Made by a program: the position numbers and the translations under genes. The notes beneath the pieces are model-generated. The model was not told the origin of the DNA. It saw nothing but the letters and a program-made list of their open reading frames with translations, and did not search any database. A DNA stretch of 60,962 bases, the filler included. It is 3 parts of 3 records of this genome, joined end to end, with 100 filler letters (N's around TTAATTAATTAA, not from the genome) between each part and the next. Parts side by side here need not be neighbours in the genome. Positions count along the whole stretch, not along the records: positions 32,148 to 60,962 come from SRR22947727_3291; 2 more parts are not named here. The stretch is one strand, 5' to 3'. Of this stretch, positions 32,616 through 60,360 are shown piece after piece (position 1 is the stretch's first letter; each line of letters begins with the position of its first letter).

Positions 32616-33302
32616 CTAAAGCGGGTGTCGCACTAACCACGCTGTCAGAGTCTCGACGAGACTATCGGCTTCGGAAAAGTCGGTAGTACGAGGGTCCGTT
32701 CCTATCACACCCCAGATTGGGCTTTTCTTGTCATGCCGATCGATTGCGTCCAGTGTTTTGTCAAGACTTGGAAGTTGTGACATGTCGACGGTTTCCGGCG
32801 CGATTGCATGCATTAAATTCGTCTCGAAGGCCCCTGCGTGATCCGGTTCAATATTCGCAGCCACACAGCGGTTTACTGCCGTGGCAATGATGTTGAGACG
32901 GTCGCTTTTGGCATTCCAATCCGCAGCGAAGCGGTCAATCATCACCAATTGTTCATCTGCAAAATGGCCGCTGAAAATGATCAACCGCTCAACTTGCATC
33001 GCGCAAAGGCGTTCGGCAGTTCGAGCTAACATGGCTTCAATTTCGGCGGAGTCTTCCATCATAATCGTCCATGGGTATGCACTATGTCCGCCACCTGTTC
33101 CGAAATAAAGTGGCGGCATGACAAGCCCGCCACCTTGGTCAGCAGCACGAAGGCACAGGCCGTGCGCCGTGAGGGCGTCCAGCCCGACGGGCAGATGTTC
33201 GCAATGCCATTCGATCGTGCCGAGTGGCATCCAGATAGTGGATTTTTCCGCCAAAGCGGTGCGAATTTGATGCGGGCGCAGGCGTTCAATTTGCCGTGTC
33301 AT
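32616..33302 (-). CDS. Creatininase-family amidohydrolase
   Basis: GTIEWHCEHLPVGLD, SGH and DHAGAFET metal-ligand motifs. Confidence 0.88.
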   Translation of the reverse strand: MTRQIERLRPHQIRTALAEKSTIWMPLGTIEWHCEHLPVGLDALTAHGLCLRAADQGGGLVMPPLYFGTGGGHSAYPWTIMMEDSAEIEAMLARTAERLCAMQVERLIIFSGHFADEQLVMIDRFAADWNAKSDRLNIIATAVNRCVAANIEPDHAGAFETNLMHAIAPETVDMSQLPSLDKTLDAIDRHDKKSPIWGVIGTDPRTTDFSEADSLVETLTAWLVRHPL

Positions 33303-34273
33303 GTGTAAAAATTCCTTGCCCAGGCGTGCTTTTCTAATCGTTCGAGCAGCGCATCCGGCAGGTGATTTCCGTCTGAATAGGCGATGTTCATATCGACCTC
33401 CTGCGGGGTTTTCATACCCGGAATCAAAACGCTAACGGCATCGTGCGACAAGACGTATCGCATTGCGGCTTCGGCGAGGGTCGGGAAGGCGTCGCCGAGT
33501 TCACCCTTAAGCGCATCAAGCCGCGTCAAGGTTTGCGCGAACCGATCTCCGCGAAACATTTCGTGTTGTTGTGATCCGGTTTCCCAAGTGGCGTAGCTGT
33601 CTTTAGTCCAGTGTCCAACCAGCGAACCGCTGTCCAAGGGCACCCGTGCGATGATCGCGGTGTCGCTGGCTTTGGCGGCTCCGAACAATGCGTCGCGGGG
33701 CTGCTGTTCGAACAGGTTAAAAATGACCTGTTGCGAGCTTACCAACCCAAGGTGCGCCAAGTCTACGCCTTCGCCAGGGCGATTGTCGCGCAGCGAAACG
33801 CCGATTTGGTCGATTTTGCCTTCCCGGCGCAAATCATTCAGGGTTTCAAGCCAGTCCAATTCCAGATGACCGTTTGGCGCCCAAGTGTGCAATTGAAACA
33901 GATCAAGTCGTTCCACGCCAAGGTGGCGCAGCGAGTTTTCGACGTTCTCGCGAAGATGCCAATCGGGGAAACGTCCGCGAAAAGCAGGTGCGTTGTCACT
34001 TGCGTTTGGCCAGACAGTTGGTTGGGCCTTAGTCGCGACATAAATCTTGTCGCCGTTCCATTCCCGCAGCGCCCGTCCAATTATTTTTTCGGAATGTCCC
34101 GCCCCATAGAGCTGCGCGGTATCCACGAAATTTATGCCACGTTCAAAGGCGTGTAGCAGTGTGTATACGGAGACGTCATCGTCAACCGGGCCCCAAGCGC
34201 CGCCAATTTGCCAGCCGCCGAAACCAATTTCCGACACCATCCAACCTGTGCGGCCAAAACCGCGATACTTCAT
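33299..34273 (-). CDS. Aldo/keto reductase
   Basis: GINFVDTAQLYG, VATK, LDLFQLH, LIPGMK; start reset to MKYRGFG. Confidence 0.92.
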   Translation of the reverse strand: MKYRGFGRTGWMVSEIGFGGWQIGGAWGPVDDDVSVYTLLHAFERGINFVDTAQLYGAGHSEKIIGRALREWNGDKIYVATKAQPTVWPNASDNAPAFRGRFPDWHLRENVENSLRHLGVERLDLFQLHTWAPNGHLELDWLETLNDLRREGKIDQIGVSLRDNRPGEGVDLAHLGLVSSQQVIFNLFEQQPRDALFGAAKASDTAIIARVPLDSGSLVGHWTKDSYATWETGSQQHEMFRGDRFAQTLTRLDALKGELGDAFPTLAEAAMRYVLSHDAVSVLIPGMKTPQEVDMNIAYSDGNHLPDALLERLEKHAWARNFYT

Positions 34274-34397
34274 GTGGGCAAGTTCGCTTTGATTTTGTTC
34301 ATCAGCGCCTCCTTGGGTGTGGCCGCCGCAGGTGTGCGGCACTAATTGCTTTTGGGCAAACCTATCGGTGCGGTCATGCTTTGTGCAGACACGAAGC

Positions 34398-34413
34398 TGA
34401 TGTGAAACAATCA
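34398..34413. promoter_or_regulatory. Putative LacI operator TGATGTGAAACAATCA upstream of the AKR-creatininase pair
   Basis: Imperfect 16-bp palindrome; related copies at 35497 and 55854. Confidence 0.6.
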
Positions 34414-35448
34414 GGGCGCTGGCGGGATGTTCTCTGGTCCATAAAGCACAATGGGGACGTTTGAGACATAAGGGCGCGCGACTGGTCTGCCTTCGTAACC
34501 AAAGTGATCCATTAGGACATCCAGAGAGAATTGGGCTTGGAGGCGCGGGTTTTGGTCTAGCGTGAGGGTCATTATCCCATCGCGAAGCATCTGGGTCGTA
34601 TATTGGGTAAGTTCATGGCCGACGAACAACGGGCGCTTATGGAGTACGTCGGCTTCGATTGCTGCCCGGACACCAAGATTGGCGCCTCCGACATTATATA
34701 TCGCGGCGATATCTGGACGCTCGCGGAATGCCGCAATGAGCTTTTCCCTTGACCGGTCACGTTCGTCCAAACCCTCAACGACACCAACAATCGTCAACTT
34801 TGGGGCATGTTCCGTCAGGTACTCCTTGAATCCGGCGATACGATCTGCGTGGGATTGGAAACCGAGGTGACTGCATAAAACCATGACAGGGCCACCAAGC
34901 GGCACCATGCGCGAGACGAAGTAGCCTGCGGTTCGTCCAGCGGTATGATGATTGGTTCCAGCATAGGCGAGTTGTTTAGAACCCGACAGGTCTGAGATAA
35001 TCGAGATCACAGGAATGTTTCGTTTGCCGACATCATCTATCGCATCGTGGATCACGGAATCGTTCTGGCCATAAGCAATCACCGCATCGCAATCCGTCGC
35101 CCTTATGGCTGCGGCGAGGGACTCAGGGGTTTCATGGGGCAGAGTGGTGATGTGAAGGCTTATGCGCCTGTCGATAGTTTTAGCAAGGTTCCGAAACTCC
35201 AACGCAATGCGGGCGAGAAGGGGTAGATCGGGACGTGCAAGGATCAGATTGAGTCGGATAAGTGGCTTGTAGGATGGCGGCAATTGACGGCGAAGTCCAA
35301 GCGCGCGGGCCGCGTCAATGACCTTGCGGCGGACGTCTTCGCTCACGTTGCCACGTTCATTTAACACGCGATCAACAGTGGCCGTGCCGACACCGGCACT
35401 ACGCGCAACGTCTTGTAATCTTGGTCGTGAGTCGCCCTTTTTGGCCAT
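34411..35448 (-). CDS. LacI-family regulator 1
   Basis: HTH LQDVARSAGVGTATVDRVLN plus a PBP-like effector domain. Confidence 0.93.
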   Translation of the reverse strand: MAKKGDSRPRLQDVARSAGVGTATVDRVLNERGNVSEDVRRKVIDAARALGLRRQLPPSYKPLIRLNLILARPDLPLLARIALEFRNLAKTIDRRISLHITTLPHETPESLAAAIRATDCDAVIAYGQNDSVIHDAIDDVGKRNIPVISIISDLSGSKQLAYAGTNHHTAGRTAGYFVSRMVPLGGPVMVLCSHLGFQSHADRIAGFKEYLTEHAPKLTIVGVVEGLDERDRSREKLIAAFRERPDIAAIYNVGGANLGVRAAIEADVLHKRPLFVGHELTQYTTQMLRDGIMTLTLDQNPRLQAQFSLDVLMDHFGYEGRPVARPYVSNVPIVLYGPENIPPAP

Positions 35449-35496
35449 TTCGCCCCCTAAACTTACGTTGCAAGGGAGCATAGAATTTTTTGCAGT

Positions 35497-35512
35497 TGAT
35501 GTAAATCAATCA
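35497..35512. promoter_or_regulatory. Putative LacI operator TGATGTAAATCAATCA in the divergent lacI-1/desaturase region
   Basis: Same motif as at 34398 and 55854. Confidence 0.6.
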
Positions 35513-35626
35513 GTTTCCGACATGCAACAAATTGGTCCAGCAGGCATGATGGCTCTAATCAACCGAATCGAGTTTCGATCTCTGGATCGGCACAAATTCA
35601 ATGTTCAGACTGTCAAGGGGATAGCG

Positions 35627-36640
35627 ATGGACGACTTAAAGAGCGGAACGCGGGACAAGCGCGGCAATTGGCGCCCCAATGACGCCATTGAAAACGCGCC
35701 GGTCTTTATCTGGCCCATTCGCCCGATGAAATTCCTGCGCTGGTTGCCAAGCTATTTCCTGCCGTGGAACCTGACTTTTTTTGCTATCAGCGTGGTGTTC
35801 TGGTTTCTGTTGACACCGTCCCGTGAGACACTCGAATCGGTTGAGTGGGGATGGGTGATTTACTTGTTTGTACGCAACTCCGCGATCGTGATCCTGTTTT
35901 ACGGGGCGCTAGAACTGCGATTGTATGTGAAGCGGCGTCAAGGGACACATTTCAAATACAACGGCAAGTTTCCGTCGGAACATCCGTCCGATGTATTCAT
36001 GTTCAAAAGCCAAAACGTGGACAACATCATCCGCACATTTGGCACCGGATTGCCGATTTGGACCGCCTATGAGGTCGGAATGCTGTGGGCCTGGGCCAAC
36101 GGCTGGGGGCCTTGGGCCACCTTTTCTGAACATCCGATTTGGTTGATTTGCTTTGGTCTGGTTCTTCCCATCCTGCACGAATTCCATTTCTATTGCATTC
36201 ATCGGCTGATCCATATTCCGGTGCTGTATAAGTGGATCCATTCGGTACACCACAATTCGGTAAACCCGTCGCCGTGGTCATCGTTATCAATGCACCCCGT
36301 TGAACATCTGCTGTACTGGTCTGGCAGCCTGATCCATCTGGTTTTACCATCGCACCCACTGCTCATGATCTATCACCTCAATATTGCGGGAACGGGAGCT
36401 GTGGTCGGGCATGTCGGCTTCGACATGATTGAGACAGGTGAGGATGGCGCGTTCGATACACATGCCTATGCCCACTACCTGCACCACAAGTACTTCGAAG
36501 TGAACTACGCCGATGGGATGATGCCATTGGATCGTTGGATGGGCACTTGGCATGACGGTTCGAAAACCGGTGACAAAATCATGCAAGATCGTTTTCGCAA
36601 GAAGAAAGAAAAAGCAAACGCGCGCAAAGGGGAGGCCTAA
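35627..36640 (+). CDS. Sterol desaturase / fatty-acid hydroxylase family di-iron membrane oxygenase
   Basis: His boxes HFYCIHRLIH, IHSVHH, MHPVE, GHVG, HYLHH, NY; start reset to ATG 35627 after AAGGGG. Confidence 0.9.
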   Translation: MDDLKSGTRDKRGNWRPNDAIENAPVFIWPIRPMKFLRWLPSYFLPWNLTFFAISVVFWFLLTPSRETLESVEWGWVIYLFVRNSAIVILFYGALELRLYVKRRQGTHFKYNGKFPSEHPSDVFMFKSQNVDNIIRTFGTGLPIWTAYEVGMLWAWANGWGPWATFSEHPIWLICFGLVLPILHEFHFYCIHRLIHIPVLYKWIHSVHHNSVNPSPWSSLSMHPVEHLLYWSGSLIHLVLPSHPLLMIYHLNIAGTGAVVGHVGFDMIETGEDGAFDTHAYAHYLHHKYFEVNYADGMMPLDRWMGTWHDGSKTGDKIMQDRFRKKKEKANARKGEA

Positions 36641-36756
36641 TGACCGTTGCTTACAAGTCTAGGTCGTACGCAGGTCGGACGTTCTAGCAAATGCCGGGTC
36701 CGATTGACCCACAACGAATGTCGTCAATTGTGACGGCGCAAAGGGAGGAAACTACA

Positions 36757-37734
36757 ATGAGTATCTTTAAGAATGTAATGGGGGCACTGCTGGCGACAGC
36801 TACGTTAGGCGTTGCACCGGTAATGGCTCAAGAAGGCGCAACCATCGCGATTATCGGTGGTCGTGCGGATGATGCGTTTTTCGCGAAAATTGGTCGTGGC
36901 ATTGATGATGCAACGCTTGTTGTCGAAGCCCATGGAGGCACCGTCAATTATTTGCAGTTGCAAACCTATGATAACATTGGTGGTGACGCTGCAAACCTTG
37001 TCCGAACAGCGATCAGCCAAGGTGTCGACATCATTGCGGTTCCAAATTGGGTTCCGGACGCGCAGGACGAGGCGATCGAGGCAGCTATGGCTGCGGGCAT
37101 TCCCGTTATGCTTTATAATGCTGGTGGCGGGGATAAGGCGGCAGAACTCGGCGCGATCAACTATATTGGCAACGAAGAATACCCTGCTGGCCTTGCTGGT
37201 GGTAAATACTTTGCCGAACATGGCGCGACGAACGTAATTTGTGTAAATACGGTGCCCGGTGCAGGTAACCTCGAAGCGCGCTGCGATGGCATCCGTGATG
37301 GGATGGCCGAGTCTGGTGGCGTTTCGGAACAGCTTCCGCTGCCAGCAAGCGCATTTGGAGATCCAACAGCGGTTGCCGAAGCGATCAAAGCGACATTGCT
37401 TGGCGATGAAACTATCGATGGTATCTTTACGATTTCCTCTGCGGATGCAGACAGTGCGTACATCGGGATGCAGCAGGCGGGACGGGTGGAAACCGTCGCC
37501 CTTGGTTCATTCGACATGAACGTGGCTGGCCTTGAGCGTATCCGTGACGGTGAACAGCTTTTTGCGATTGACCAGCAGCCCTGGTTGCAGGGCTTTCTGG
37601 CGGTGACGCTAGCCGATGGTTACGTGAACTATGGTCTAGCGATGGCGACGTCGCCGTTGCTGACAGGGCCGGGCATCGTGGATGCATCCAACATCGAAGC
37701 CACACTTAAGGGCGGAGAACTTGGCTATCGCTAA
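36757..37734 (+). CDS. Sugar/cyclitol ABC transporter substrate-binding protein 1
   Basis: Signal peptide; PBP type-1 motifs DDAFF, NLEARC, FAIDQQPWLQG; RBS GGAGG. Confidence 0.9.
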   Translation: MSIFKNVMGALLATATLGVAPVMAQEGATIAIIGGRADDAFFAKIGRGIDDATLVVEAHGGTVNYLQLQTYDNIGGDAANLVRTAISQGVDIIAVPNWVPDAQDEAIEAAMAAGIPVMLYNAGGGDKAAELGAINYIGNEEYPAGLAGGKYFAEHGATNVICVNTVPGAGNLEARCDGIRDGMAESGGVSEQLPLPASAFGDPTAVAEAIKATLLGDETIDGIFTISSADADSAYIGMQQAGRVETVALGSFDMNVAGLERIRDGEQLFAIDQQPWLQGFLAVTLADGYVNYGLAMATSPLLTGPGIVDASNIEATLKGGELGYR

Positions 37735-37747
37735 GACTGAATTTGTT

Positions 37748-37773
37748 CGGCCCGTAGACGTTTCTGCGGGCCG
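37748..37773 (+). terminator. Intercistronic hairpin after SBP gene 1 (attenuating or mRNA-stabilising)
   Basis: CGGCCCGTAGA-CGTT-TCTGCGGGCCG. Confidence 0.55.
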
Positions 37774-37838
37774 TTACATCGGCATGACCTAACGATATGG
37801 TTGCCACCAGCCACCGAACAAACACGGGGACATTTCCA

Positions 37839-38834
37839 ATGAGTCGTTTATCAATCGGCAGTCTATTTCGCCGACCAGAGGCCGGAGCCTTTCTGGGAAT
37901 GGTCGCAGTCATTGCCTTCTTTCTAATTTTCGGCGGCATAAATTTTTTGAAACCGTCCGGTATCGCGAGTTGGCTAAACGTTGCCGCCAACATTGGGATT
38001 ATTGCAATACCGGTCGGGTTGTTGATGATCGCAGGTGAATTAGACATTTCCATCGGGTCAATGATCCCCGCGGGGTCGATGATCGTGGCAATCATGTCCG
38101 GCCACTATGACTTCCCGATTTGGATGTCGATCATTGTGGTGCTCGGGTTTGGTGTAGTTGTCGGGTTTATCAACGGCTTTTTGGTCGTTCACACAGCCGT
38201 CCCGTCGTTGATTGTAACGCTTGGTACTTTGTTCGCAGTAGCGGGTCTCGTGCTTGGCCTATCGGTGCTGATCACAGGAACGACCAGCGTATCGATCAAG
38301 GCACCGGACTTTTACAAAGCCGTTTTCGGGCAATTTATTGGTGGTACCTATCAAGTTATCATCTTGTGGTGGTTTGCTGTGACAGTCGTTTATATTTTCT
38401 ACATCCACTATACAAAGTACGGCAATTGGATCTTCGCCATGGGAGGCGACCGTGAAAGCGCACGCAATGCCGGTATTCCGACCACGAAACTGACAATCAT
38501 CTTGTTCATCCTGTCGGCGTGTAGCGCGGCGTTCGTGGGCATGTGTCAGGCGCTGCTGTTCAACTCGGCGCAAGTGTCTGCGGGGATGTCTTATATCTTT
38601 AACGTGATCATTTCGGTGGTCGTCGGGGGCGTTGTCCTAACGGGTGGATTTGGGTCCGTCGTCGGGATCGTCTTTGGCACCATTACTTTTGCGGTGGTCA
38701 ATCAAGGCATCTATTTCACAAGTTTTGATCGAAACTGGTCAAGTTTGATTATCGGCGTGATGCTGTTGGCCGCCGTCCTGATGAACAACACCTTCCGCTC
38801 CATGGCGCTGTCTTATGCGCCAAAGAAGAAATGA
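37839..38834 (+). CDS. Sugar ABC transporter permease 1 (RbsC-like)
   Basis: [46 protein letters not shown]. Confidence 0.92.
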
Positions 38835-38844
38835 GGGCCAACCG

Positions 38845-39633
38845 ATGACTTCTCCAGTTCTGGAACTCCGTAGTGTTGATAAATCCTTTGGGCCGATCGA
38901 CGTGCTGCATGATATTTCCCTCAAGATGAATGAAGGCGAGGTGCTTTGCCTGCTCGGGGATAACGGTGCGGGTAAATCAACGCTTATCAAGACGCTATGT
39001 GGTGTCCACAAGCCGACACGGGGTTCCATCCTTATGGATGGCGCGGAGGTGACATTCTCCACCCCGCGAGAGGCCCAAGATAAAGGCATCGCCACCGTGC
39101 ACCAATTTGGCGGCACATTTCCGTTGATGAGCATTGGGCGCAGTTTCTTCGTGGGTGTGGAGCCCACCAAAGGATGGGGTCCGTTCAAGATCTACGATCG
39201 CAAGAAAGCCAATAAGATCGCGGTCGAGGCTGTGCAGAACTTCGGCATCACGCGCGTCGATGACGGTGATCGTCTGATAGGCGGCTTGTCAGGTGGTGAA
39301 CGTCAGTCGCTGGCCATTGCCCGCGCGGTCCATTTCGGCGCGCGTGTTCTTATCCTTGATGAACCAACAGCCGCGCTCGGGGTCAAACAGGCCGCACACG
39401 TTCTTCGCATCGTGAACGAGGCAAAACGCCGGGGATTGGCCGTGATTTTCATCACTCACCAGGTCATGCATGCCATGGCAGTGGGCGATCATTTCGCAGT
39501 GTTGATCCGTGGCGCTATCGCTGCCGATTTCCGCAAAGGCGAACGGTCCCGCGAAGAGATCACCGACTTGATGGCGGGCGGCGAAACGATGGCAGATCTC
39601 GAAAGGCAAATCGAAGGCTATGCCGATGCTTAA
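38845..39633 (+). CDS. Sugar ABC transporter ATP-binding protein 1 (single NBD)
   Basis: [25 protein letters not shown]. Confidence 0.94.
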
Positions 39634-39755
39634 GCTAACAACACGACGCGTCGAGCTCCCAAGGTGTCGGTCGGGGAGCGCAGTCCAGTCCGGAGGTTGT
39701 CTCCCGGCCTCCCACTCTGAAAGGCGCTCCCCTCTTTATGATCTGGCAAACCTAA

Positions 39756-40760
39756 ATGATCGTTAGAATTGCAGTCATCGGCGCAGGATTGATGGGCGCG
39801 GACCACGCCAAGATCATTGCGGAGGATTTGCCGGGCGCGCAGTTGCAAATTGTGTGCGATATGGACGTCACCCGCGCACAAGGCTTGGCGGATCGCTATG
39901 GGGCGGTCGATGTTGCCATCGACCCGGACATCGTGATTGCCCGCGATGACGTGGATGCGGTAATCTTGGCCAGCCCGGATTTTACCCATGCGCCGCTGTC
40001 ATTGGCCTGCATCAAAGCGGGTAAGCGGGTGCTATGTGAAAAACCTTTGTCGCAGCTGCCGGGTGAATGTCTTGCTGTCATGGCCGCTGAACAGGCCTCA
40101 GGTGCGAAACATGTGATGTTAGGTTTCATGCGCCGTTATGATCAATCTTATATCGAGATGAAGCAGGCGCTTGACGGTGGCACTTTGGGTCGCGCTTTGA
40201 TGATGCACAATTTCCACCGCAACGTGGAAACGCCTGCCGCTGATTTCACGGGCGCCATGGCGATCACAAACTCTGCGCCGCACGAATTTGACGTGGTTCG
40301 CCATGTGCTGGGAACAGAATATGCGTCGATCACGGCCTTTCAGCCAAAGCGCTCTGACGCGCTGGTGGCCCCTGTCGTCATGGTTCTGGAAACCACAGAT
40401 GGCCAGCTGGTGACAATCGAGATCAACAACAATGCCGCCTACGGATACGACGTACGCGGCGAATTGGTGGGCGAGGCAGGCGCGATTGCAATGAACAGCG
40501 TGGCCTACACCCGCACTGACATGAAACTGTCAAGTTCCACCCGCTATGAATCCGATTGGCGAGGCCGTTATCATGCGGCTTATGTTCGCCAAAACCGCGA
40601 CTTTCTGGCCTATGTCGAAACGGGAAAATTCCCTGACATTGCATCGGATTGCTGGGATGGATACTGCGCCGCGATTGTAGCCCAAGCTGGCATTGAAGCC
40701 TTGGTTTCGGGTACGAAAACACAGGTCGTGATGGCCCCCAAACCGGAGTTTTACGCATGA
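39756..40760 (+). CDS. Gfo/Idh/MocA inositol dehydrogenase-like oxidoreductase
   Basis: VIGAGLMG, LCEKPL, GFMRRYD, YGYDVR. Confidence 0.9.
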   Translation: MIVRIAVIGAGLMGADHAKIIAEDLPGAQLQIVCDMDVTRAQGLADRYGAVDVAIDPDIVIARDDVDAVILASPDFTHAPLSLACIKAGKRVLCEKPLSQLPGECLAVMAAEQASGAKHVMLGFMRRYDQSYIEMKQALDGGTLGRALMMHNFHRNVETPAADFTGAMAITNSAPHEFDVVRHVLGTEYASITAFQPKRSDALVAPVVMVLETTDGQLVTIEINNNAAYGYDVRGELVGEAGAIAMNSVAYTRTDMKLSSSTRYESDWRGRYHAAYVRQNRDFLAYVETGKFPDIASDCWDGYCAAIVAQAGIEALVSGTKTQVVMAPKPEFYA

Positions 40761-41716
40761 AACTGGGCTTTGTGTCTGACAGCCTTGGTGGAATGTCTTT
40801 CACCGACATGCTCGATCATGCGCAGCGCGTGGGCGTTTCGGGGGTTGAGGTAAACACCTGCGGGTGGTCAACGGCGCCACATTTCGATCTAAAAGGACTG
40901 CTGGGCAACAAGACGGCCCAAGCCGCCTTTCAGAAAGAGTTTTCTGATCGCAACCTTGAGATCATCAGCCTGAATGCTAACGGAAATCCGCTGCATCCGA
41001 CTGACCCGACACATGGACAGGGGCTGCGCGACACCATCTGCGTCGCGGGTGAAATGGGCATCAAGACCGTTTGCACCATGTCGGGCCTACCAGCAGGGTC
41101 CGCCAATGATGCTATGCCCAACTGGATCGTTTCCTCTTGGCCACCTGAAACGCAAGATATTCTGCGCTTTCAATGGAACGAGAAACTGATCCCGTTTTGG
41201 ATCGAAATTGTTGCGCTGGCACAGGAAAACGGGGTCGAGAAGATTGCATTGGAAATGCATGGCAACCAATGCGTCTACAACGTGCCGTCGCTGTTGAAAC
41301 TGCGCGAAGCTGTAGGTCCGATTGTCGGCGCTAACCTTGATCCAAGCCACCTATTTTGGATGGGGGCTGATCCGTTGATTGCAGCGCAGGCATTAGGGCA
41401 TGCAATTTATCACGTGCATGCAAAAGACACGATGCTTAATGCACCTGTGCAGGCAACCACCAGCTTACTGGAGAATGGCTCTCTTATGGATGTTCCGGCC
41501 CGCAGCTGGTCTTATATCACGCTCGGGTTTGGCCACGGTGAAGAATGGTGGCGACAGTTCTGCTACCGACTCAAAATGGCAAATTACGATGGTTGGCTTT
41601 CGATCGAGCATGAAGACGTTTTGCTGAACTCGTTAGAAGGATTGGAGAAGTCCGTGACGCTTCTTCAAGGTGTTATGCCTGATCGCCCGGCAGATTATAG
41701 GCCACAGGACATTTGA
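40757..41716 (+). CDS. Sugar-phosphate isomerase/epimerase TIM-barrel protein (inosose isomerase/epimerase-like)
   Basis: LEMH, NLDPSH, HVHAKD and SIEHED metal motifs. Confidence 0.88.
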   Translation: MKLGFVSDSLGGMSFTDMLDHAQRVGVSGVEVNTCGWSTAPHFDLKGLLGNKTAQAAFQKEFSDRNLEIISLNANGNPLHPTDPTHGQGLRDTICVAGEMGIKTVCTMSGLPAGSANDAMPNWIVSSWPPETQDILRFQWNEKLIPFWIEIVALAQENGVEKIALEMHGNQCVYNVPSLLKLREAVGPIVGANLDPSHLFWMGADPLIAAQALGHAIYHVHAKDTMLNAPVQATTSLLENGSLMDVPARSWSYITLGFGHGEEWWRQFCYRLKMANYDGWLSIEHEDVLLNSLEGLEKSVTLLQGVMPDRPADYRPQDI

Positions 41717-41785
41717 GGCCCGGGCGTGCGCCTGAGTGAATTGCCCAAACAGGGCGGTTGTTAAACAAAAGAAAAGGAGCGAGTG

Positions 41786-42097: not shown

Positions 42098-42178
42098 GGC
42101 GGGGCTTTTGCGGCCTAGGGCCCCCCAAAAGACACATAATCTCGCTGGACTCGGTGTCGGCGCGCTTGTTAGAAAACT

Positions 42179-53094: not shown

Positions 53095-53999
53095 TGGCTG
53101 TCAAAATTGGCATTTCCCTAATCGCTTGGCAGAACGATGACCTGCCGGACTTGACCGCCGGATTCACGACCGAGGGCGCAATGGAGGACGCAGGGCGCAT
53201 CGGCTATCAGGGTGTCGAACGCGGCCGCCGGATGCCAGCCGATACGGATGGGCTGCGCAGCTATCTCGACCGTTACGGCGTGTCGCTGTGTGGGGGGTGG
53301 TGTTCAGGCAGCCTGATGACCGCCTCGCTCGAGGATGAGAAAGCCGCCGTGCTTCAACAAGTAGAACAATTCGTGGCACTTGATGCGCCTTGCATCGTTT
53401 ACGCTGAATGTTCGAACAGCGTGCAGGGCGACCTTTCTATGCCCGTTCGTAACCGCCCGAAGTTAAGCCGTGACGACGTGAAATCCTACGCATTAAAGCT
53501 GACGGAACTAGCCAAATGGATGTCGGACAAGGGGATGAGGCTGTCATATCACCACCATATGGGCAGCATGATTGAAGACTCCGAAGACATAGATTGGCTC
53601 ATGGAGGGGTCGGGCCCCGAAGTGACGCTGCTATATGATACAGGCCATTTGCTATTTGCGGGGGCCGACCCGCTGGAGGTACTCGATCGATGGGGTGACC
53701 GCGTGCACCATGTTCATTTCAAAGACGTGCGTCCCGACAAGATGGCATGGGTTCGCACAGAAAATCGCAGCTTTCTGGATGGCGTGCGGGCAGGGGTTTA
53801 CTCAGTACCAGGCGATCCCGAAGGCTGCATTGATTTTCAGGCAATAACAGATCGGCTTAAGGCGATGGATTATGGCGGCTGGATTGTGGTCGAGGCTGAG
53901 CAAGATCCGGCGCTGGCTCCGCCGTATGAATATTCAAAGTTGGGCTATGATCATATCGTCGACATTTGTGGCCGCTCTGGCCTGACACTCAAAAACTGA
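53094..53999 (+). CDS. iolE: Inosose dehydratase
   Basis: AWQNDD, YHHHMG, DTGH, HVHFKD, WIVVEAEQDP. Confidence 0.95.
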   Translation: MAVKIGISLIAWQNDDLPDLTAGFTTEGAMEDAGRIGYQGVERGRRMPADTDGLRSYLDRYGVSLCGGWCSGSLMTASLEDEKAAVLQQVEQFVALDAPCIVYAECSNSVQGDLSMPVRNRPKLSRDDVKSYALKLTELAKWMSDKGMRLSYHHHMGSMIEDSEDIDWLMEGSGPEVTLLYDTGHLLFAGADPLEVLDRWGDRVHHVHFKDVRPDKMAWVRTENRSFLDGVRAGVYSVPGDPEGCIDFQAITDRLKAMDYGGWIVVEAEQDPALAPPYEYSKLGYDHIVDICGRSGLTLKN

Positions 54000-54009
54000 A
54001 GGGAACGTC

Positions 54010-54816
54010 ATGGCTGATTTGCTGAAAAAACCGTTTGGAACCCGCGGCAAGGTGCATCAAATCACACGCGAAAGCGCAGGCTGGCGATATGTCGGTTTCT
54101 CGCTTTATCGCCTGAAAGCCGGGGACGAAGCGGCAGAAGTGACCGGCGACCTTGAAGTCATCCTTGTTATGGTCGAAGGCAAGGCGGCCATCACCGGTGG
54201 TGGTCAGGATTGGGGCGTTTTGGGCGACCGCATGAACGTGTTCGAAAAGACGCCGCCGCATTGCCTATATCTGCCGAATGGCACGGATTGGGCGGCCAAG
54301 GCTGAAACCGATTGTGTCATTGGCGTCTGCACGGCACCGGGCATTGGCGGGCATAAAGCACGGCGCATCGGGCCCGACGGCATCACCTTGACAGAGCGCG
54401 GCACAGGAACCAACACACGCCACATCAACAATATAGCGATGGAAAACGAGGATTACTGTGACAGTTTGTTGGTGACCGAGGTGTTCACACCGGCGGGCCA
54501 TTGGTCGTCCTATCCAAGCCACCGACACGATGAAGACGATTACCCCCACATCACATACCTTGAGGAAACCTATTACCACCGCCTAAACCCTGCGTCAGGC
54601 TTTGGTATCCAAAGGGTCTATACCGACGACGGGCAGTTGGACGAAACAATGGCGGTGTCTGATGGCGACGTCGTTTGCGTGCCGCGCGGTCATCATCCCT
54701 GTGGCACCCCCTACGGGTTCGAGATGTATTACCTCAATGTCATGGCTGGGCCGCTCCGAAAGTGGCGTTTCGTTGCGGCTCCCGAGGTTGAATGGATCAT
54801 GGAACGCGACGCCTAG
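54010..54816 (+). CDS. iolB: 5-deoxy-glucuronate isomerase
   Basis: AGWRYVGF, WSSYPSHRHD, LEETYYH, YYLNVMAG. Confidence 0.96.
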   Translation: MADLLKKPFGTRGKVHQITRESAGWRYVGFSLYRLKAGDEAAEVTGDLEVILVMVEGKAAITGGGQDWGVLGDRMNVFEKTPPHCLYLPNGTDWAAKAETDCVIGVCTAPGIGGHKARRIGPDGITLTERGTGTNTRHINNIAMENEDYCDSLLVTEVFTPAGHWSSYPSHRHDEDDYPHITYLEETYYHRLNPASGFGIQRVYTDDGQLDETMAVSDGDVVCVPRGHHPCGTPYGFEMYYLNVMAGPLRKWRFVAAPEVEWIMERDA

Positions 54817-55844
54817 AAGGATTCCGGCACATACAACTGAGGTGTCAGGAAGTGCTGGCCCGGGCTGGAAGTTTGTCCGCTAAGCTGCGACTCAATCATC
54901 AACTGAACCACATTTTCGCACAGTTCTTGCAGCGGTGTGGCAATAACCATTGTGGCATAGCGATCTACAAGGGCTTTTCGGCTGTCATCTGTCAGCTCAT
55001 TTACGACGAGCGCCACCTTACCGGGCGGCCGCTTTTCGCGCAAAGCGGCGATCGCGCCTTCCATCCCGCCGCCGGCTACATAGATGCCACGCAGATCTGG
55101 TTGGCGGTCCAGGAGATCTAGCGTTGCTTCATAGGTGACCTGGCGGGTTTCGAGATTGACCACCGTGTCGATCATTGAGAAATCCGGCGCGTATTCGCGG
55201 ATGTAACTTTGGAATCCCGTCTCGCGCATCAGATGTCCGTGCCACCGGTTGCCGCCCACAAATACAGCCAACTTACCGGGAGTGCGTGCGTGCGTTGTTA
55301 GCATCCATGCCGCAGTGCGTCCGACTTTGACGTTGTCCAGCCCAAGGTAGTTCTGTCGGATGTTTTGGGCAAAGTCGTTCAACAGCGCAAAGACAGGCGT
55401 GCCTGTGCGGGCAAGGTCGCTTACCAGTTCGGATAGGGACGGGTGGTTGATTGCCGATGTCGCAATCGCATCCGTCTGCTGCGCAACGACTTCTATTTCT
55501 TTTGCGAAGTCGTCTGGCGCTTGCGACGCTGCGAAGCGAATGACTGCCCGGCCACGGATGTCGGTCCGGCTATTGACAACATCTTGCAGGGCTGCTGCGA
55601 AATTACGGTAAAACTCTTGCGATCCTTTATGAAGTACGAATCCAAAACGGATCAGAGGGCGACTGGCCTCGTCGCGTCGTGCGGATAACACGCGGGTCGG
55701 GTAGCCGATACGCTCGGCCTCGTCCAAAACACGATCGAGTGTTTCCTGGCGCACGTTGGAGCGCCCGTTAAGCGCACGATCCACCGTCGCAACGCCGACG
55801 CCTGCGGCATACGCAAGATCTTTAAGGGTCGGGCGCTTCGTCAT
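54813..55844 (-). CDS. LacI-family regulator 3, divergent from mocD (paralogue of regulator 2)
   Basis: HTH LKDLAYAAGVGVATVDRAL; shares FVGGNRWHGH and NLETRQVTYEA with LacI-2; start reset to MTKRPT. Confidence 0.93.
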   Translation of the reverse strand: MTKRPTLKDLAYAAGVGVATVDRALNGRSNVRQETLDRVLDEAERIGYPTRVLSARRDEASRPLIRFGFVLHKGSQEFYRNFAAALQDVVNSRTDIRGRAVIRFAASQAPDDFAKEIEVVAQQTDAIATSAINHPSLSELVSDLARTGTPVFALLNDFAQNIRQNYLGLDNVKVGRTAAWMLTTHARTPGKLAVFVGGNRWHGHLMRETGFQSYIREYAPDFSMIDTVVNLETRQVTYEATLDLLDRQPDLRGIYVAGGGMEGAIAALREKRPPGKVALVVNELTDDSRKALVDRYATMVIATPLQELCENVVQLMIESQLSGQTSSPGQHFLTPQLYVPESF

Positions 55845-55853: not shown

Positions 55854-55910
55854 TGATTGAATCACATCACTTGTTGGCGTTCTGATGATGTATTTTGATG
55901 TATAATCATG
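55854..55910. promoter_or_regulatory. Operator region between lacI-3 and mocD
   Basis: TGATTGAATCACATCA (55854-55869, reverse complement TGATGTGATTCAATCA) plus TGATGT half-sites at 55886 and 55896. Confidence 0.6.
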
Positions 55911-55973: not shown

Positions 55974-57077
55974 ATGACGATGCAAAAACGTGATTATTCG
56001 CTGCTGGGACCGGATGCGCAGCGCGCAGTTGAGACAGGATTGGCAGCTGCCAACTGGTATCATACGGACATCGCGCGCAAAGACATGAAGGCGCTGATGA
56101 AGCGCGAGGATCAGCCTGCGATCCGAGACACGGTGATCTTGTTCAGCGCCATGACGATCTTTGTTGTTTTGGGTGTAGCGCTTTGGCCATCTTGGTGGTC
56201 GGCGCCGTTCTGGCTCGCCTATGGTGTTCTATATGGATCAGCGATGGACAGTCGCTGGCACGAATGCGGGCATGGTACACCATTCCGCACTGCGAAATAT
56301 AATGACTGGGTCTACCAAATCGCGTCATTCTGCATGGTTCGCAATCCGGTGACGTGGCGTTGGGGTCATGCGCGCCACCATACCGATACCGTAATCGTCG
56401 GTCGCGACCCCGAGATCGTCGCGATGCGGCCACCTGCGCTGTTTCGCATTCTTCTGAACTTCTTTGGTATTCTGGATGCGTTCCAAGGCTGGAAAACGAT
56501 GGTCCAGAATGCATTTGGCCACCTTGATCCCGAAGCCGCAAGTTACATCCCCCAAAGCGAGCAGCCCAAGGTGTTTCGCACAGCGCGGATCTGGGTTGCG
56601 ATCTATGCGGTTGTCCTGCTTCTTGCGGTGGCGACGCAATCTATTCTACCGCTCATGATCATCGGATTGCCGCGCCTTTACGGGGCCTGGCATCACGTTA
56701 TGACCGGCATTTTGCAGCACGCCGGTCTTGCAGATAACGTCATCGACCACCGCCTGAACAGCCGCACGGTCTACATGAACCCGATCAGCCGGTTCATCTA
56801 CTGGAACATGAACTACCACGTGGAACACCATATGTTTCCAATGGTTCCCTATCATCGGCTGCCCGAATTGCATGCGGCGATCAAACATGACCTGCCGGCG
56901 CCGAATCCGTCAATTTGGCAAGCCTACAAAGAGGTTTGGCCAATCCTGAAGCGGCAACTGACTTATCATGATGAATTTCTGATGCGCAGCCTCCCCGGGG
57001 GAGCGCAGCCATACCGCAACGATTTGCATCAAAGCGCACTTGGAGAAACGACTCCAACAGCGACTCCGGCAGAATAA
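55974..57077 (+). CDS. mocD: MocD-like fatty-acid-desaturase-family hydrocarbon oxygenase
   Basis: His boxes WHECGH, GHARHH, QHAGL, NYHVEHH; followed by a Rieske ferredoxin and a reductase as in rhizobial mocDEF. Confidence 0.85.
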   Translation: MTMQKRDYSLLGPDAQRAVETGLAAANWYHTDIARKDMKALMKREDQPAIRDTVILFSAMTIFVVLGVALWPSWWSAPFWLAYGVLYGSAMDSRWHECGHGTPFRTAKYNDWVYQIASFCMVRNPVTWRWGHARHHTDTVIVGRDPEIVAMRPPALFRILLNFFGILDAFQGWKTMVQNAFGHLDPEAASYIPQSEQPKVFRTARIWVAIYAVVLLLAVATQSILPLMIIGLPRLYGAWHHVMTGILQHAGLADNVIDHRLNSRTVYMNPISRFIYWNMNYHVEHHMFPMVPYHRLPELHAAIKHDLPAPNPSIWQAYKEVWPILKRQLTYHDEFLMRSLPGGAQPYRNDLHQSALGETTPTATPAE

Positions 57078-57088
57078 GGAATAGATAA

Positions 57089-57400
57089 ATGGCAAACTGG
57101 ATTGACGCCTGCGCGGCAGACGACATCGACGAAGAAGACGTGATCCGTTTTGATCACGATGGGCGCACCTTTGCGGTTTATCGCTCGCCCGATGACAATT
57201 ATTTCTGCACCGACGGACTTTGCACTCATGAACAGGTGCATCTGGCAGATGGTCTTGTGATGGATCACACCATTGAATGCCCTAAACACAACGGTCAGTT
57301 TGACTATCGTACGGGCGAGGCAACACGCACACCTGTCTGTGTGAACCTTGGGGTGTATCCGGTCAAGGTTGAGGGCGGTCGCGTCCTGATCGACATTTGA
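57089..57400 (+). CDS. mocE: MocE-family Rieske 2Fe-2S ferredoxin (copy 2)
   Basis: DGLCTHE, IECPKHNG. Confidence 0.9.
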   Translation: MANWIDACAADDIDEEDVIRFDHDGRTFAVYRSPDDNYFCTDGLCTHEQVHLADGLVMDHTIECPKHNGQFDYRTGEATRTPVCVNLGVYPVKVEGGRVLIDI

Positions 57401-58609
57401 ATGTCGGGCATTGTCATCATCGGGGCAGGGGAGTGCGGTGTGCGTGCGGCCTTTGCTGCCCGTGCCGAAGGCTTTGACGGTGAAGTTACGCTGGTTGGCG
57501 ACGAATGCGGCATGCCCTACGAACGCCCGCCGCTTTCCAAACCCGACGCGAATGGTGCAACCCTTAAACCGATATGCACCGCAGAGATGTTGGCTGCGAA
57601 AAACATTATGCTGTTAGATGGAGTTGCGGCAAAGCATATTAATAGGGAAGCCTCATGTGTACGCCTGTCCACCGGTGAGGATTTGACGTATTCGCGGCTG
57701 CTTTTGGCGACAGGTGCTAGCCCGCGCAGGTTGACATGCGAAGGCGGCGAACACGCGGTGACGCTGCGGACCATTGAAGACGCGAACCGGATTTACAGTG
57801 CAGCTGTGAAAAGGACACGCACGGTAATAATCGGGGCTGGTCTTATAGGGCTGGAACTCGCCGCCGAACTGGTTGGACGTGGTAGCAAAATTACGGTTCT
57901 AGAAGCCGGGCCAGTGCCGCTTGGCCGCAATGTTCCGCAACCCCTCGCACAACGTATAGTCGAGCGCCACCTAGCCGAGGGCGTGGATATCGTCTGTAAC
58001 GTCGAGGTCGCGCGCATTTCCAGTCGTGCTGTCGAATTGGTGGGCGGTCAGTTGATTGCCGCAGATCTGGTTGTTGCGGCCATTGGTGTTGTTCCAAATA
58101 CGGATCTCGCACAGGCCGCTGGTTTGTATATCGGTAACGGGATCGCCGTTGATGAGGCATTGCGCACCATTGACACCAACATTTTTGCCGCTGGAGATTG
58201 CGCAAGTGTGAACTTCTCGGGGCTTGGGCTTCAAAGATTTGAAACTTGGCAGAATGCTCAGTTCCAAGGTGAGATCGCGGGTCGGAACTTGGCAGGTGCG
58301 TCCGGTGTTTTCCAACCTCCAGTCTGGTTTTGGTCCGATCAATACGACCTTGGCTTGCAGGGTGTCGGTCAAACCATTGGAAAAGCTACTGCGCAACGCA
58401 CGCTTTCGGATGATGCAAAGATCCTGTTTTACCTGAATGATGCCGGACAATTGGTTGGCGCGGCTGGCTTGGGTGTCGGTAACGCGGTCGCCAAAGACAT
58501 CAAGCTGGCGCAGAAACTGATTGAGGCCAAAGTGGCGGTCGCGGCTGCAAGCCTTGAAGATCCAACAACAAATTTAAAGAAATTGCTCAAACCCGCTCCG
58601 GCGAACTGA
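57401..58609 (+). CDS. mocF: FAD-dependent ferredoxin reductase (MocF-like)
   Basis: IIGAGECG, YERPPLSK, IIGAGLIGLE, FAAGDC, WFWSDQYD. Confidence 0.88.
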   Translation: MSGIVIIGAGECGVRAAFAARAEGFDGEVTLVGDECGMPYERPPLSKPDANGATLKPICTAEMLAAKNIMLLDGVAAKHINREASCVRLSTGEDLTYSRLLLATGASPRRLTCEGGEHAVTLRTIEDANRIYSAAVKRTRTVIIGAGLIGLELAAELVGRGSKITVLEAGPVPLGRNVPQPLAQRIVERHLAEGVDIVCNVEVARISSRAVELVGGQLIAADLVVAAIGVVPNTDLAQAAGLYIGNGIAVDEALRTIDTNIFAAGDCASVNFSGLGLQRFETWQNAQFQGEIAGRNLAGASGVFQPPVWFWSDQYDLGLQGVGQTIGKATAQRTLSDDAKILFYLNDAGQLVGAAGLGVGNAVAKDIKLAQKLIEAKVAVAAASLEDPTTNLKKLLKPAPAN

Positions 58610-58625
58610 GCTTAAGGAGAACGAC

Positions 58626-59435
58626 ATGGATCTTTATCACAAGCGGCCAACAGTGGCGGATATTCGAGCGCTTAAGGGCAAGCGTCAACTGACGATGTTA
58701 TACGTAGAAACGCCCGATGAGGCCGCGGCGGCGGCGGCGGCGGGGATTGATATGTTGTCGATTATTGATCCCGCTTGGACCGAAGAAATGCGCAAGGCGG
58801 CGGGAAATTGTTTTGTGCAGGTCGGGCTGCTTTACGGTCAACTCGTAACGCTTGAAGATTACCAACGTGCCGCGCACCGCGCGATGCAAGTGGGCGGCGA
58901 TTGCGTCTATTGTGCATCGTCCATGGGCACGATCAAAGCGCTCGCTGATGATGGAATTCCGGTTGTAAGCCATGTTGGTCTGATCCCGTCCAAGTCAACA
59001 TGGACCGGCGGCTTTAAAGCCGTGGGAAAAACCGCTGAGAGCGCAATGCAGGTTTTGGACCACGTCAGACAACTCGAAGACATCGGCTGTTTCGGCGTGG
59101 AACTGGAAGTCGTTCCTGATCGCGTCGCGATTGAAATATCGAAACGAACAAACCTTGTTTTACTCGGCATGGGGGCTGGCCCGCATGCTGACGCGCAATA
59201 CCTATTCGCCGAAGACGTATTGGGGTGCACTACGGGCCATAAGCCGCGCCACGCAAAGACGTACCGCAATTTTGCCAGCGAATTCGACCGCCTGCAGCAA
59301 GAACGCATTGCCGCGTTCCGCGAGTTCAAGGCCGATGTCGATGGGGCTGCCTATCCAGCAGCAGACCATTCCGTAAAAATCAGCGATGACGAGCTAGAAA
59401 AATTCATCGCCCGATTGAATGATACCGCGACCTGA
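58626..59435 (+). CDS. PanB-like hydroxymethyltransferase paralogue lacking the canonical Mg2+ ligands
   Basis: Keeps SHVGLIP, GGFKAVGK, LEVVP, GMGAG and DAQYL; lacks GDS, D(M/L)PF and VKxEG. Confidence 0.82.
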   Translation: MDLYHKRPTVADIRALKGKRQLTMLYVETPDEAAAAAAAGIDMLSIIDPAWTEEMRKAAGNCFVQVGLLYGQLVTLEDYQRAAHRAMQVGGDCVYCASSMGTIKALADDGIPVVSHVGLIPSKSTWTGGFKAVGKTAESAMQVLDHVRQLEDIGCFGVELEVVPDRVAIEISKRTNLVLLGMGAGPHADAQYLFAEDVLGCTTGHKPRHAKTYRNFASEFDRLQQERIAAFREFKADVDGAAYPAADHSVKISDDELEKFIARLNDTAT

Positions 59436-59475
59436 ATTTGGGCCCTTCCGCCGCACTCCATTTTGAAAGCCAATA

Positions 59476-60360
59476 ATGCCCAATCTTGCCCTTACAGTGT
59501 CATGCGTTTCTACCATTGGTATCGTCGCAGCAATCTCGACCTTCCTTGCAAAGCATGAGTGTAACATCACCGACAGTGCCCAATTTGACGACCCAATCAC
59601 TGGCGCGTTTTTCACGCGCGTTAGTTTCAAGGCGCCCGACGCCATGGATATGGATGACCTGCGCGGTCATTTTAACGAAACTGCCGCGCAATTTAAGATG
59701 GACTGGGCCATCCACGACCAAGCCACGAAAATGAAAGTTGCGATCATGGTGTCGCGTTTCGGGCATTGTTTGAACGATCTGCTTTATCGCTGGCGCATCG
59801 GTGCCCTGCAGATTGATATTGTCGCAGTAATTTCAAACCACACCGATTATCAAAAGCTGGTCGTCAATCATGACATCCCGTTTCATCACATCAAAGTCAC
59901 GAAGGAGAATAAGCCGGACGCCGAGGCGCGGATCATGCAAGTGATTGAGGAGTCCGATGCTGAGCTCGTTGTCTTAGCGCGGTATATGCAGATCCTAAGC
60001 GACCAGATGTGCCAAAAAATGTCAGGCCGCATTATCAATATCCATCACTCATTTCTGCCGAGTTTCAAAGGTGCAAACCCCTATAAGCAGGCCTTTGAAC
60101 GCGGTGTGAAACTGATTGGTGCAACGGCGCACTATGTAACGGCCGACCTTGATGAGGGGCCGATCATTGAACAAGACACAATCCGCGTAACGCATGCGCA
60201 AAGCGCAGGCGATTACGTCACACTTGGTCGTGACGTCGAAGCGCAGGTATTCGCCAGGGCGATCCATGCCCATATTCACCACCGCGTATTTCAAAATGGC
60301 GACAAAACCGTGGTCTTTCCGGCCAGCCCTGGGGGCTATGCTTCGGAAAGACTGGGTTAA
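59476..60360 (+). CDS. purU: Formyltetrahydrofolate deformylase
   Basis: N-terminal ACT domain, [41 protein letters not shown]. Confidence 0.96.

Follow-up and report, generated by a model that had tools for sequence, protein, structure and literature searches.

A block of 27 genes at positions 32616-60360 (27,745 bp) is probably a mobile module under LacI control that supports growth on inositols as well as on inositol methyl ethers. It lies in a 60,962-nucleotide stretch of DNA, referred to here as the window, in which three parts of one genome are joined by artificial linkers. The block comprises three units: unit a is centred on a membrane oxygenase of the sterol-desaturase/fatty-acid-hydroxylase family (FAH), unit b combines an ABC importer with iol genes for inositol breakdown, and unit c contains mocDEF, a panB-like gene and purU. 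The genes and the order described in an initial annotation made from the sequence were confirmed, with 27 genes recovered, through an open reading frame (ORF) map, translations and scans with Pfam and NCBIfam profiles, the latter judged by curated bit-score cut-offs, and the three LacI-controlled units described there were matched by genes for LacI1, LacI2 and LacI3 at units a, b and c. Units b and c in all likelihood form a single methyl-inositol pathway, as the co-occurrence of mocD with iolE and a shared operator support the one connected cyclitol route with methyl removal that had been proposed. The features of the block are as follows (SBP, substrate-binding protein; KPHMT, ketopantoate hydroxymethyltransferase):

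32616-33302, minus strand: creatininase-family metallohydrolase (PF02633), optional partner in unit a
33299-34273, minus strand: aldo-keto reductase (AKR; PF00248), optional partner in unit a
34411-35448, minus strand: LacI1 (PF00356 and PF13407), regulator of unit a, divergent from FAH
35497-35512: candidate operator 5' of FAH, one mismatch to TGAYG-N6-CRTCA
35627-36640, plus strand: FAH (PF04116), membrane di-iron oxygenase, proposed second methyl-cyclitol oxygenase
36757-39633, plus strand: ABC1 importer (SBP1, permease, ATPase), cyclitol-type
39756-40760, plus strand: Gfo/Idh/MocA dehydrogenase 1, inositol/chiro-inositol dehydrogenase-like (NF052679, 255 against 540 bits, below cut-off)
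40757-41716, plus strand: TIM-barrel isomerase/epimerase 1 (PF01261), putatively inosose isomerase-like
41786-42097, plus strand: MocE-family Rieske ferredoxin of unit a (TIGR02377, 145 bits against a cut-off of 136)
42179-42196: predicted palindromic operator 5' of lacI2, with an identical 18-mer at 43237-43254
42206-43237, plus strand: LacI2, regulator of unit b (family scan)
43396-44211, plus strand: TIM-barrel isomerase 2 (PF01261), counterpart of SMb20711, putative inosose isomerase
44292-47213, plus strand: ABC2 importer (SBP2, permease, ATPase), IbpA/MocB-type by SBP2 identity and gene order
47273-48343, plus strand: Gfo/Idh/MocA dehydrogenase 2 (NF008607, below cut-off)
48340-54816, plus strand: iolG, iolC (kinase-aldolase fusion), iolD, iolE and iolB, all above NCBIfam cut-offs
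54813-55844, minus strand: LacI3, divergent from mocD (family scan)
55854-55869: candidate operator in the lacI3-mocD spacer, one mismatch to TGAYG-N6-CRTCA
55974-58609, plus strand: mocD (membrane di-iron oxygenase, PF00487), mocE (Rieske ferredoxin) and mocF (FAD reductase), by family scans
58626-59435, plus strand: PanB-like protein with a KPHMT fold that lacks the Mg/keto-acid site (TIGR00222, 99 against 208 bits, below cut-off)
59476-60360, plus strand: purU, formyltetrahydrofolate deformylase (TIGR00655, 336 against 286 bits)

Co-occurrence was surveyed in 301 genomes of the Rhodobacteraceae-type family, nearly one per genus, with MocD, IolE, FAH, the PanB-like protein and PurU as queries; the survey genomes are related, so that p-values overstate the associations, and the MocD tiers were set by identity to the query. 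An iolE gene was present in 41 of the 48 genomes whose MocD reached 62% identity or more, against 70 of the remaining 253, and genomes with only a MocD of 52-61% (13/37) lay near the background of those without mocD (52/209). Physical linkage was likewise divided, iolE being found within 30 kb of 14/48 close MocD genes and 0/55 distant ones; these linkage counts rest on the survey, since a separate set of 20 close-MocD loci had been picked from long contigs and in part moved toward places where iolE was known to lie. With FAH, iolE was found in 11 of the 12 genomes at 59% identity or more and in 24/31 at 51% or more, against 87/270 others. Both oxygenases are thus associated with iol genes in other genomes; a lack of such association was one of the grounds on which the initial annotation would have given up its reading. 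Non-iol MocDs were placed on long branches of a quick MocD tree. The MocD histidine boxes (H96/H100, H132/H135/H136 and H282/H285/H286) were conserved in 50/50 homologues, a PDB sequence search with MocD returned no match, and MocD matched 272 plasmid records, mostly rhizobial.

A candidate operator common to unit b and close mocD genes would also tie units b and c together. The 18-nt palindrome occurs at two exact sites, 5' of lacI2 and 5' of the unit b operon, against an expectation of 0.2. The motif TGAYG-N6-CRTCA, allowing up to one mismatch, was found upstream of 16/20 homologues of isomerase 2 (0.95 in shuffles) and of 16 of the 23 mocD genes at least 64% identical, against 2/24 more distant ones (fewer than 1 in shuffles). 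It also preceded 8/30 FAH genes of at least 66% identity (0.8 in shuffles). The site upstream of FAH in the block is weak when taken alone, because 4.3 one-mismatch sites are expected by chance across the block; a further one-mismatch site lies at 34398, upstream of the AKR gene. LacI2 was 53% identical to LacI3, and LacI1 27% identical to both. A sigma-70 scan of 41600-44400 found nothing.

The transporter of unit b has a characterised relative. SBP2 was 67% identical to the SBP of an isomerase-SBP-ATPase-permease operon on Sinorhizobium meliloti pSymB with matching gene order, in which the gene before the SBP gene encodes a protein 45% identical to isomerase 2. From this gene order, we take the operon to be SMb20711-14 and the SBP to be SMb20712. 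The SMb20712 protein is reported to bind myo-inositol with a Kd of 0.47 μM (PMC3454389) and to be needed for growth on this compound (PMC2597717). The best PDB match of SBP2 was 4YO7. The block resembles the alphaproteobacterial ibpA-iatA-iatP plus iolG/C/D/E/B/A module described in the same two papers in this SBP, in the upstream isomerase and in a complete iolGCDEB set, but differs in having LacI with the TGAYG-N6-CRTCA operator instead of an RpiR-type IolR, no iolA, and two extra oxygenase units. Scores of the iol products against their cut-offs were 419/355 bits for IolG, 695/600 for iolC, 891/715 for iolD, 373/290 for iolE and 335/205 for iolB, and the ORFs overlap or abut. As family scans of the 27 genes contained no iolA, IolA must come from elsewhere in the genome; IolA/MmsA (TIGR01722) was above cut-off elsewhere in 4/4 genomes checked. 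In Flavimaricola, a LysR gene and a second mmsA/iolA lie just past purU, 1.1 kb away (L083:2731-5205), and the pathway is complete locally.

In unit c, the mocE product scored 184 bits (TIGR02377) and was 60% identical to the ferredoxin of unit a, and LacI3 was 49% identical to the LacI preceding mocDEF on S. meliloti pSymB. Elsewhere, mocDEF and iol genes were induced together by a root exudate in which pinitol was the top component, a response read there as rhizopine catabolism (PMC5789663). The following route is proposed from these parts. By orthology, ABC2 would import inositol, and IolG, IolE, IolD, IolB and IolC open and split the ring to dihydroxyacetone phosphate (DHAP) and malonate semialdehyde. 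By analogy with the rhizopine model, MocF would pass electrons from NADH through MocE to the membrane di-iron MocD, which would hydroxylate the O-methyl group, and the hemiacetal would collapse to free cyclitol and formaldehyde. Unit a would widen the substrate range: ABC1 may import a different methyl-cyclitol isomer, FAH, supplied through its own MocE-type ferredoxin together with the shared MocF, may O-demethylate it in the manner of alkylglycerol monooxygenase (AGMO), and dehydrogenase 1 and isomerase 1 may turn it into scyllo-inosose for IolE. The PanB-like protein would capture formaldehyde on tetrahydrofolate (THF) as methylene-THF, and host FolD together with the PurU of the cassette would release the one-carbon (C1) unit as formate and free THF. 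A rhizopine locus with mocDEF, panB-like and purU in the same order supports this reading of the block, because its substrate is an O-methyl ether.

The PanB-like protein was compared through 56 homologues with Escherichia coli PanB. In all 56, a 20-residue segment (G44-A63, E. coli numbering) is deleted, D84 is replaced by G, K112 by Y and E114 by A or S, and equivalents of H136, E181 and D217 are kept. Six conserved KPHMT pocket residues are described (Asp at 45/46, D84, K112, E114, H136 and E181; PMC13488298), four of which are gone in 56/56 PanB-like sequences. The family is strongly conserved and retains a conserved pocket, with new invariant residues Y95, W126, E159, H209 and R227. An AlphaFold2 model built from the alignment gave a KPHMT barrel (pLDDT 93), with KPHMT as the top Foldseek matches (TM-score about 0.68). 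The protein is thus like KPHMT PanB (EC 2.1.2.11; PDB 1M3U, 3VAV) in its fold and the three retained positions, and unlike it in the deletion, the lost site residues and its coexistence with a canonical panB, found elsewhere in 4/4 genomes checked. Among 96 PanB-like genes, 59 were near mocD, 22 near FAH and 75 near either (within 12 kb), and about 21-22 of the 40 FAH genes at least 51% identical had a PanB-like gene within this distance (5/12 plus 17/28). Its position beside two dissimilar oxygenase families suggests a shared product, not a shared interface. Because rhizopine itself is an O-methyl ether, the simplest role for the protein would be to capture formaldehyde, or the carbon of the hemiacetal, on THF. 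The uncatalysed condensation of formaldehyde with THF is described as slow in vivo, a THF-using counterpart of Fae being named only as a possibility (PMC7073904). The chances that the PanB-like protein hands C1 to folate appear evenly balanced.

Unit a is very probably cyclitol-linked. SBP1 was 62-65% identical to binding proteins of iolC/iolD operons without FAH in Rhizobium ruizarguesonis and Paracoccus pantotrophus, and its single PDB match was 4RU1, the ligand of which is myo-inositol. For FAH, 77 loci were fetched, 62 of them at 47% identity or more and many on short contigs. The partners found in these 62 were SBP1 (32), dehydrogenase 1 (28), isomerase 1 (22), a MocE-type ferredoxin (20) and the PanB-like gene (17, dehydrogenase 2 accompanying it in 6/62), and more rarely AKR (10), creatininase (10), MocF (6), MocD (5) and iolC (2); none of these partners occurred in the 15 distant FAH loci. 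A hydroxypyruvate-isomerase-like gene recurred in 20/121 oxygenase loci. S. meliloti pSymA carries lacI-FAH-mocE (L100:10742-13400, L164:8823-13000), and in strain ml56 unannotated SBP2-like and mocF-like remnants follow FAH-mocE on pSymA. FAH is thus wired like MocD. Two FAH paralogues per cluster (about 68% and about 52% identical to that of the window) were present in several genomes (L011, L012, L014, L018, L044, L045, L046 and L110), some with duplicated SBP1/permease genes, and these pairs suggest several related substrates. Tandem distant FAH homologues (33-39%) with no cassette partner gene were seen in metagenome-assembled genomes of Acidimicrobiales (L062-L076).

FAH residues H193/H197, H206/H209/H210, H284/H287/H288 and H224 were retained in 84-85 of 85 sequences, and hydropathy gave three hydrophobic segments; FAH thus has both the eight-His motif and membrane helices. 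FAH (PF04116) and MocD (PF00487) belong to different di-iron families with no useful pairwise alignment, and a PDB sequence search with FAH returned no match. The eight-His di-iron motif is shared with AGMO and sterol C4-methyl oxidase. Both of these act on lipids, AGMO with tetrahydrobiopterin and sterol C4-methyl oxidase with cytochrome b5, whereas FAH belongs to a sugar ABC operon that includes a Rieske ferredoxin, and its proposed substrate is a soluble cyclitol. As an enzyme with the motif of fatty acid hydroxylases that cleaves ethers via a hemiacetal, AGMO nevertheless provides a precedent for ether cleavage (PMC3617469). That FAH removes the methyl group as C1 is considered about as probable as its opposite.

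The main rival to O-demethylation by FAH is C-methyl oxidation, as performed by sterol C4-methyl oxidase, on the C-methyl inositols laminitol and mytilitol, which are found in algae and shellfish; units b and c would be unchanged, and once the adjacent hydroxyl had been oxidised, the methyl would leave as CO2 or through a retro-aldol transfer by the PanB-like protein. FAH belongs to PF04116, the family of ERG25, and travels with a dehydrogenase and an isomerase in the numbers given above; moreover, retro-aldol loss of a hydroxymethyl group beside a ketone would be PanB chemistry reversed, and the block is present in seawater metagenomes. However, the PanB-like protein is without the metal site that stabilises the enolate, homologues about 60% identical to FAH are common on plasmids of soil rhizobia, where algal C-methyl inositols would be an unexpected food, and a literature search found no bacterial catabolism of laminitol or mytilitol. 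This alternative is regarded as unlikely. Slightly less likely again is that FAH removes no methyl group but introduces a hydroxyl or a double bond at a ring carbon of a quercitol-type deoxy-cyclitol or some other modified cyclitol, with the AKR and creatininase-like proteins performing an IolN-like diketone ring opening. Unit a has no PanB-like gene of its own here or on a Fuscovulum plasmid, the PanB-like gene was present in the minority of the 62 FAH loci (many being short contigs), and the creatininase family includes IolN, but the PanB-like gene lies within 12 kb of about half of the FAH genes at least 51% identical, and AKR and creatininase occurred in just 10/62 FAH loci. As an IolN diketo-inositol hydrolase, the creatininase-like protein was rejected (NF041098, 37 bits against a cut-off of 245); its E31/H33/D42/H113 and other residues were invariant in 14/14 sequences.

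Under a further alternative, the substrates of the oxygenase units would be methylated sugars with no relation to inositol, and their place next to an iol operon would reflect only where mobile DNA had left them. Distant MocDs with PanB-like genes do occur in non-iol sugar operons, and unit a moves alone on a repABC plasmid. However, the MocD of the window falls in the identity tier with strong iol linkage and the shared operator, and ABC1 is iol-linked even without FAH, making this explanation improbable. MocD homologues of 55-61% identity were seen with PanB-like genes in such operons (L144-L163), with a short-chain dehydrogenase/reductase, a fuconolactonase-like protein and a kinase as neighbours, and are possibly methyl-sugar demethylases; genome G001 carries one MocD of this type.

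Several points weigh against the proposed module for inositols and their methyl ethers. The quick MocD tree gave no firm support for iol-linked MocDs as one clade, and MocD homologues of 52-61% had a PanB-like gene within 12 kb in 25/55 cases yet were not iol-linked, so that the module is not inositol-specific. Close to FAH, iol genes were scarce, with iolE within 30 kb of just 3/40 FAH genes and iolC in the two FAH loci noted above. The built-in C1 disposal of the initial annotation is weakened: purU is present in the block and above its cut-off, but a close purU was found in 12/74 PanB-like genomes against 59/227 others, without enrichment, and lay near the PanB-like gene in just three genomes (G203, G041 and G224). 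A general partnership of PurU with the PanB-like protein was rejected on these counts, PurU being an occasional add-on. The 45 neighbour clusters met most often, which were assigned from N-terminal sequence and of which four were scanned, included no recognisable folD, fhs or gfa family. Demethylation by MocDEF is itself a genetic model, and a demethylase is not needed in every case: in Erwinia, the use of pinitol depended on iolT/iolG/iolE but on neither of the two vanB demethylases tested (PMC9788770). Finally, the substrates, induction and enzyme roles given for all of these proteins are predictions from sequence.

Given the presence of mocDEF, the relation of the block to rhizopine loci was examined. 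The mocDEF genes have been described as encoding a rhizopine demethylating oxygenase, after Bahar 1998 (PMC13434037, PMC10107442). A rhizopine locus of Rhizobium leguminosarum RCAM2802 (L174) contains, besides mocDEF, genes resembling mocC, mocA, mocB and mocR and one for a mosB-like aminotransferase; mocF is directly followed by a panB-like gene, which is split, and by purU, both unannotated in the record (L174:12753-14388). MocD, MocE and MocF of the window were 64, 74 and 43% identical to this triad and 67, 73 and 48% to that of S. meliloti pSymB, and the window PurU was 71% identical to that of L174, encoded in the same place after panB-like. SBP2 was 61% identical to MocB of L174 but 67% to the IbpA-type protein. 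The window IolE was 39% identical to the L174 iolE-like product and IolG 26-27% to the L174 dehydrogenases; both resemble ordinary iol proteins. No MocR (GntR/PLP-type) regulator or aminotransferase was found among the 27 genes, the only regulators being the three LacI proteins. Relative to the rhizopine locus mocCABRDEF of S. meliloti L5-30 and R. leguminosarum (PMC10107442, PMC13434037, PMC5789663), the block thus shares MocD/E/F, a MocB-type SBP and reliance on iol functions, but has LacI in place of MocR, an internal iol operon, and a second oxygenase (PF04116) with its own ferredoxin and transporter. A rhizopine function for the block is very improbable: the MocDEF, SBP2 and panB-like-purU resemblances to L174 speak for it, but MocR and the aminotransferase are absent from the 27 genes, MocD is closer (67-70%) to a LacI-controlled locus of many rhizobia, and rhizopines are described as rare in nature (PMC6668481). 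The block would function in the manner of the rhizobial MocDEF plus iol system without being a rhizopine locus, and the label "rhizopine-like" holds for the MocDEF triad and SBP2 only.

That LacI-controlled locus of non-rhizopine rhizobia (lacI-mocDEF-panB-like; SMb20817-20 on pSymB, R. johnstonii pRL11; with a FixV-like LacI, PMC3538637) matches unit c in gene order, divergent LacI and MocD identity, and on pRL11 it also has an adjacent TIM-barrel isomerase; unlike the block, it is not joined to iolGCDEB, ABC1 or FAH. Together with mocDEF-panB-like-purU in L174, these loci rule out the idea that the combination is special to marine bacteria. Homologues of mocDEF outside rhizopine loci have been noted beside LacI and linked to an inositol derivative (PMC3538637), and mocDEF in Pseudomonas of woody hosts was called unexplained (PMC5132102). 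Literature searches returned no paper on the cluster as a whole, on the unit around FAH or on PanB-like proteins as a family, most subscription papers lying outside their coverage, and no tested substrate for FAH or the rhizobial LacI-mocDEF was found in the accessible literature. Methyl-inositols were reportedly among the compounds tested in the studies of S. meliloti inositol catabolism by Kohler (2010/2011), so that earlier genetic data bearing on mocDEF and pinitol may be available. The block is less novel than the initial annotation held: mocDEF-panB-like is common in rhizobia, and MocD, FAH, PanB-like and iolE occurred together in 16/301 family genomes.

Mobility of the block was assessed from its copies in other genera. 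The block was 95.8% identical to that of Litoreibacter meonggei over 28,444 bp and 94.0% to that of Flavimaricola marinus over 27,749 bp, and these two copies were 92.3% identical to each other over 27,752 bp, whereas the core suc and cys regions of Litoreibacter and Flavimaricola were only 77% and 71% identical (70-74% to the window). As the block is so much more alike than the core, sequence comparison shows its recent transfer between the two isolates, whatever the host of the window. The term "island" is thus justified by cross-genus identity but gains nothing from composition, the GC fraction of the block (0.544) equalling that of its flank (0.545). In Flavimaricola, the GC content of the block is below that of core genes, and an IS3 transposase lies on one side. 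Unit a occurs by itself on a mobilisable repABC plasmid of Fuscovulum ytuae, units b and c were found on a Marivivens plasmid, and Puniceibacterium has a rearranged set (70-78% identity) without the AKR and creatininase genes. The ABC2 genes were 77-79% identical in DNA to those of Litoreibacter (L081; flanking genes 96-99%) and 91-95% to those of Flavimaricola; mocE, mocF, iolD and iolB showed the opposite trend (88-89% to Flavimaricola). The cassette, judged by these identities, is a recombining mosaic. It is also an unusually complete assembly of individually common modules, recently transferred.

The block starts directly after an artificial contig linker (N44-12 nt-N44, 32048-32147), left of which the window is 98-99% identical to genome G001. 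A search of G001 did not find the block, and the cassette was present in 0/23 genomes of the presumed host genus, some of them incomplete, which held only distant ABC2/iolG homologues (66-72%). The linker comes after the 5' part of a tRNA-Asp gene, and the position of the block beside this fragment and beside the host DNA on the left may reflect only the joining of parts. Integration at tRNA-Asp was considered but gained no support, G001 having two tandem tRNA-Asp genes with no insert and the window breaking at the linker. Metagenome contigs branch at 32176-32179, and no link across was found; bases 32148-32179 act as a repeat in such contigs. Two seawater metagenome runs that carry no flag as a possible source yielded contigs that together cover 32176-52100 and differ from it little, so that this part is not an assembly artefact. 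At least 96% of the sampled words were present in 13 seawater DNA runs out of the 23 sequencing runs listed, and 6 of these 13 are flagged as possible sources. RNA contigs from two marine metatranscriptome runs matched lacI1, SBP1, permease 1, isomerase 1, ferredoxin 1, SBP2 and iolD, a weak hint of expression, as DNA carry-over is possible.

Past purU, the window (60357-60962) holds aroQ as well as the terminal part of a pcaB-like gene. This DNA is also present in Litoreibacter (L172:1440-13945), where it runs on into a quinate/shikimate-protocatechuate cluster with pcaB, a QuiC-like gene, shikimate dehydrogenase and a transporter, and quinate/pca genes likewise follow iolB on the Marivivens plasmid. 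These neighbours raise the possibility that the cassette belongs to a larger region for cyclitol use. The remainder of the window (1-32047) is ordinary housekeeping sequence (spoT, pdxJ, lepB-rnc-era-recO, tRNA-Ala, lpd-sucBA-sucDC, infC, a cysG/cysI cluster and an Lrp regulator), with a second artificial contig linker at 12057-12156.

Methyl-inositols are major plant solutes, and cyclitols are contained in mangrove, seagrass and algae. In one root exudate, pinitol ranked first among the components (PMC5789663), and literature searches found no characterised bacterial enzyme that demethylates methyl-inositols. Most parts of the block are known from rhizobia, the chemistry of the second oxygenase FAH and the PanB-like protein being possibly new. 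In a doubtful but more far-reaching version, the block would hold two new activities, an FAH that, driven by a Rieske ferredoxin, takes the methyl group off a soluble cyclitol methylated at O or C (perhaps algal laminitol or mytilitol) and a PanB-derived enzyme condensing formaldehyde with THF as the folate counterpart of Fae, within a widespread marine and rhizosphere methyl-cyclitol route moving between roseobacter genera. A formaldehyde-THF condensing enzyme, if real, would matter for synthetic methylotrophy and would also correct a large family annotated as panB (5,515 matches at E≤1e-30 among 8,000 scored candidates, a share of which may be true PanB). What makes the block valuable is these two candidate enzymes and the presence of the complete set in two type strains, L. 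meonggei DSM 29466 and F. marinus CECT 8899. As both candidate oxygenases, two transporters and the downstream pathway are gathered in two culturable strains, the MocDEF model becomes directly testable, and the pSymA copy in S. meliloti 1021 offers a genetic handle on FAH.

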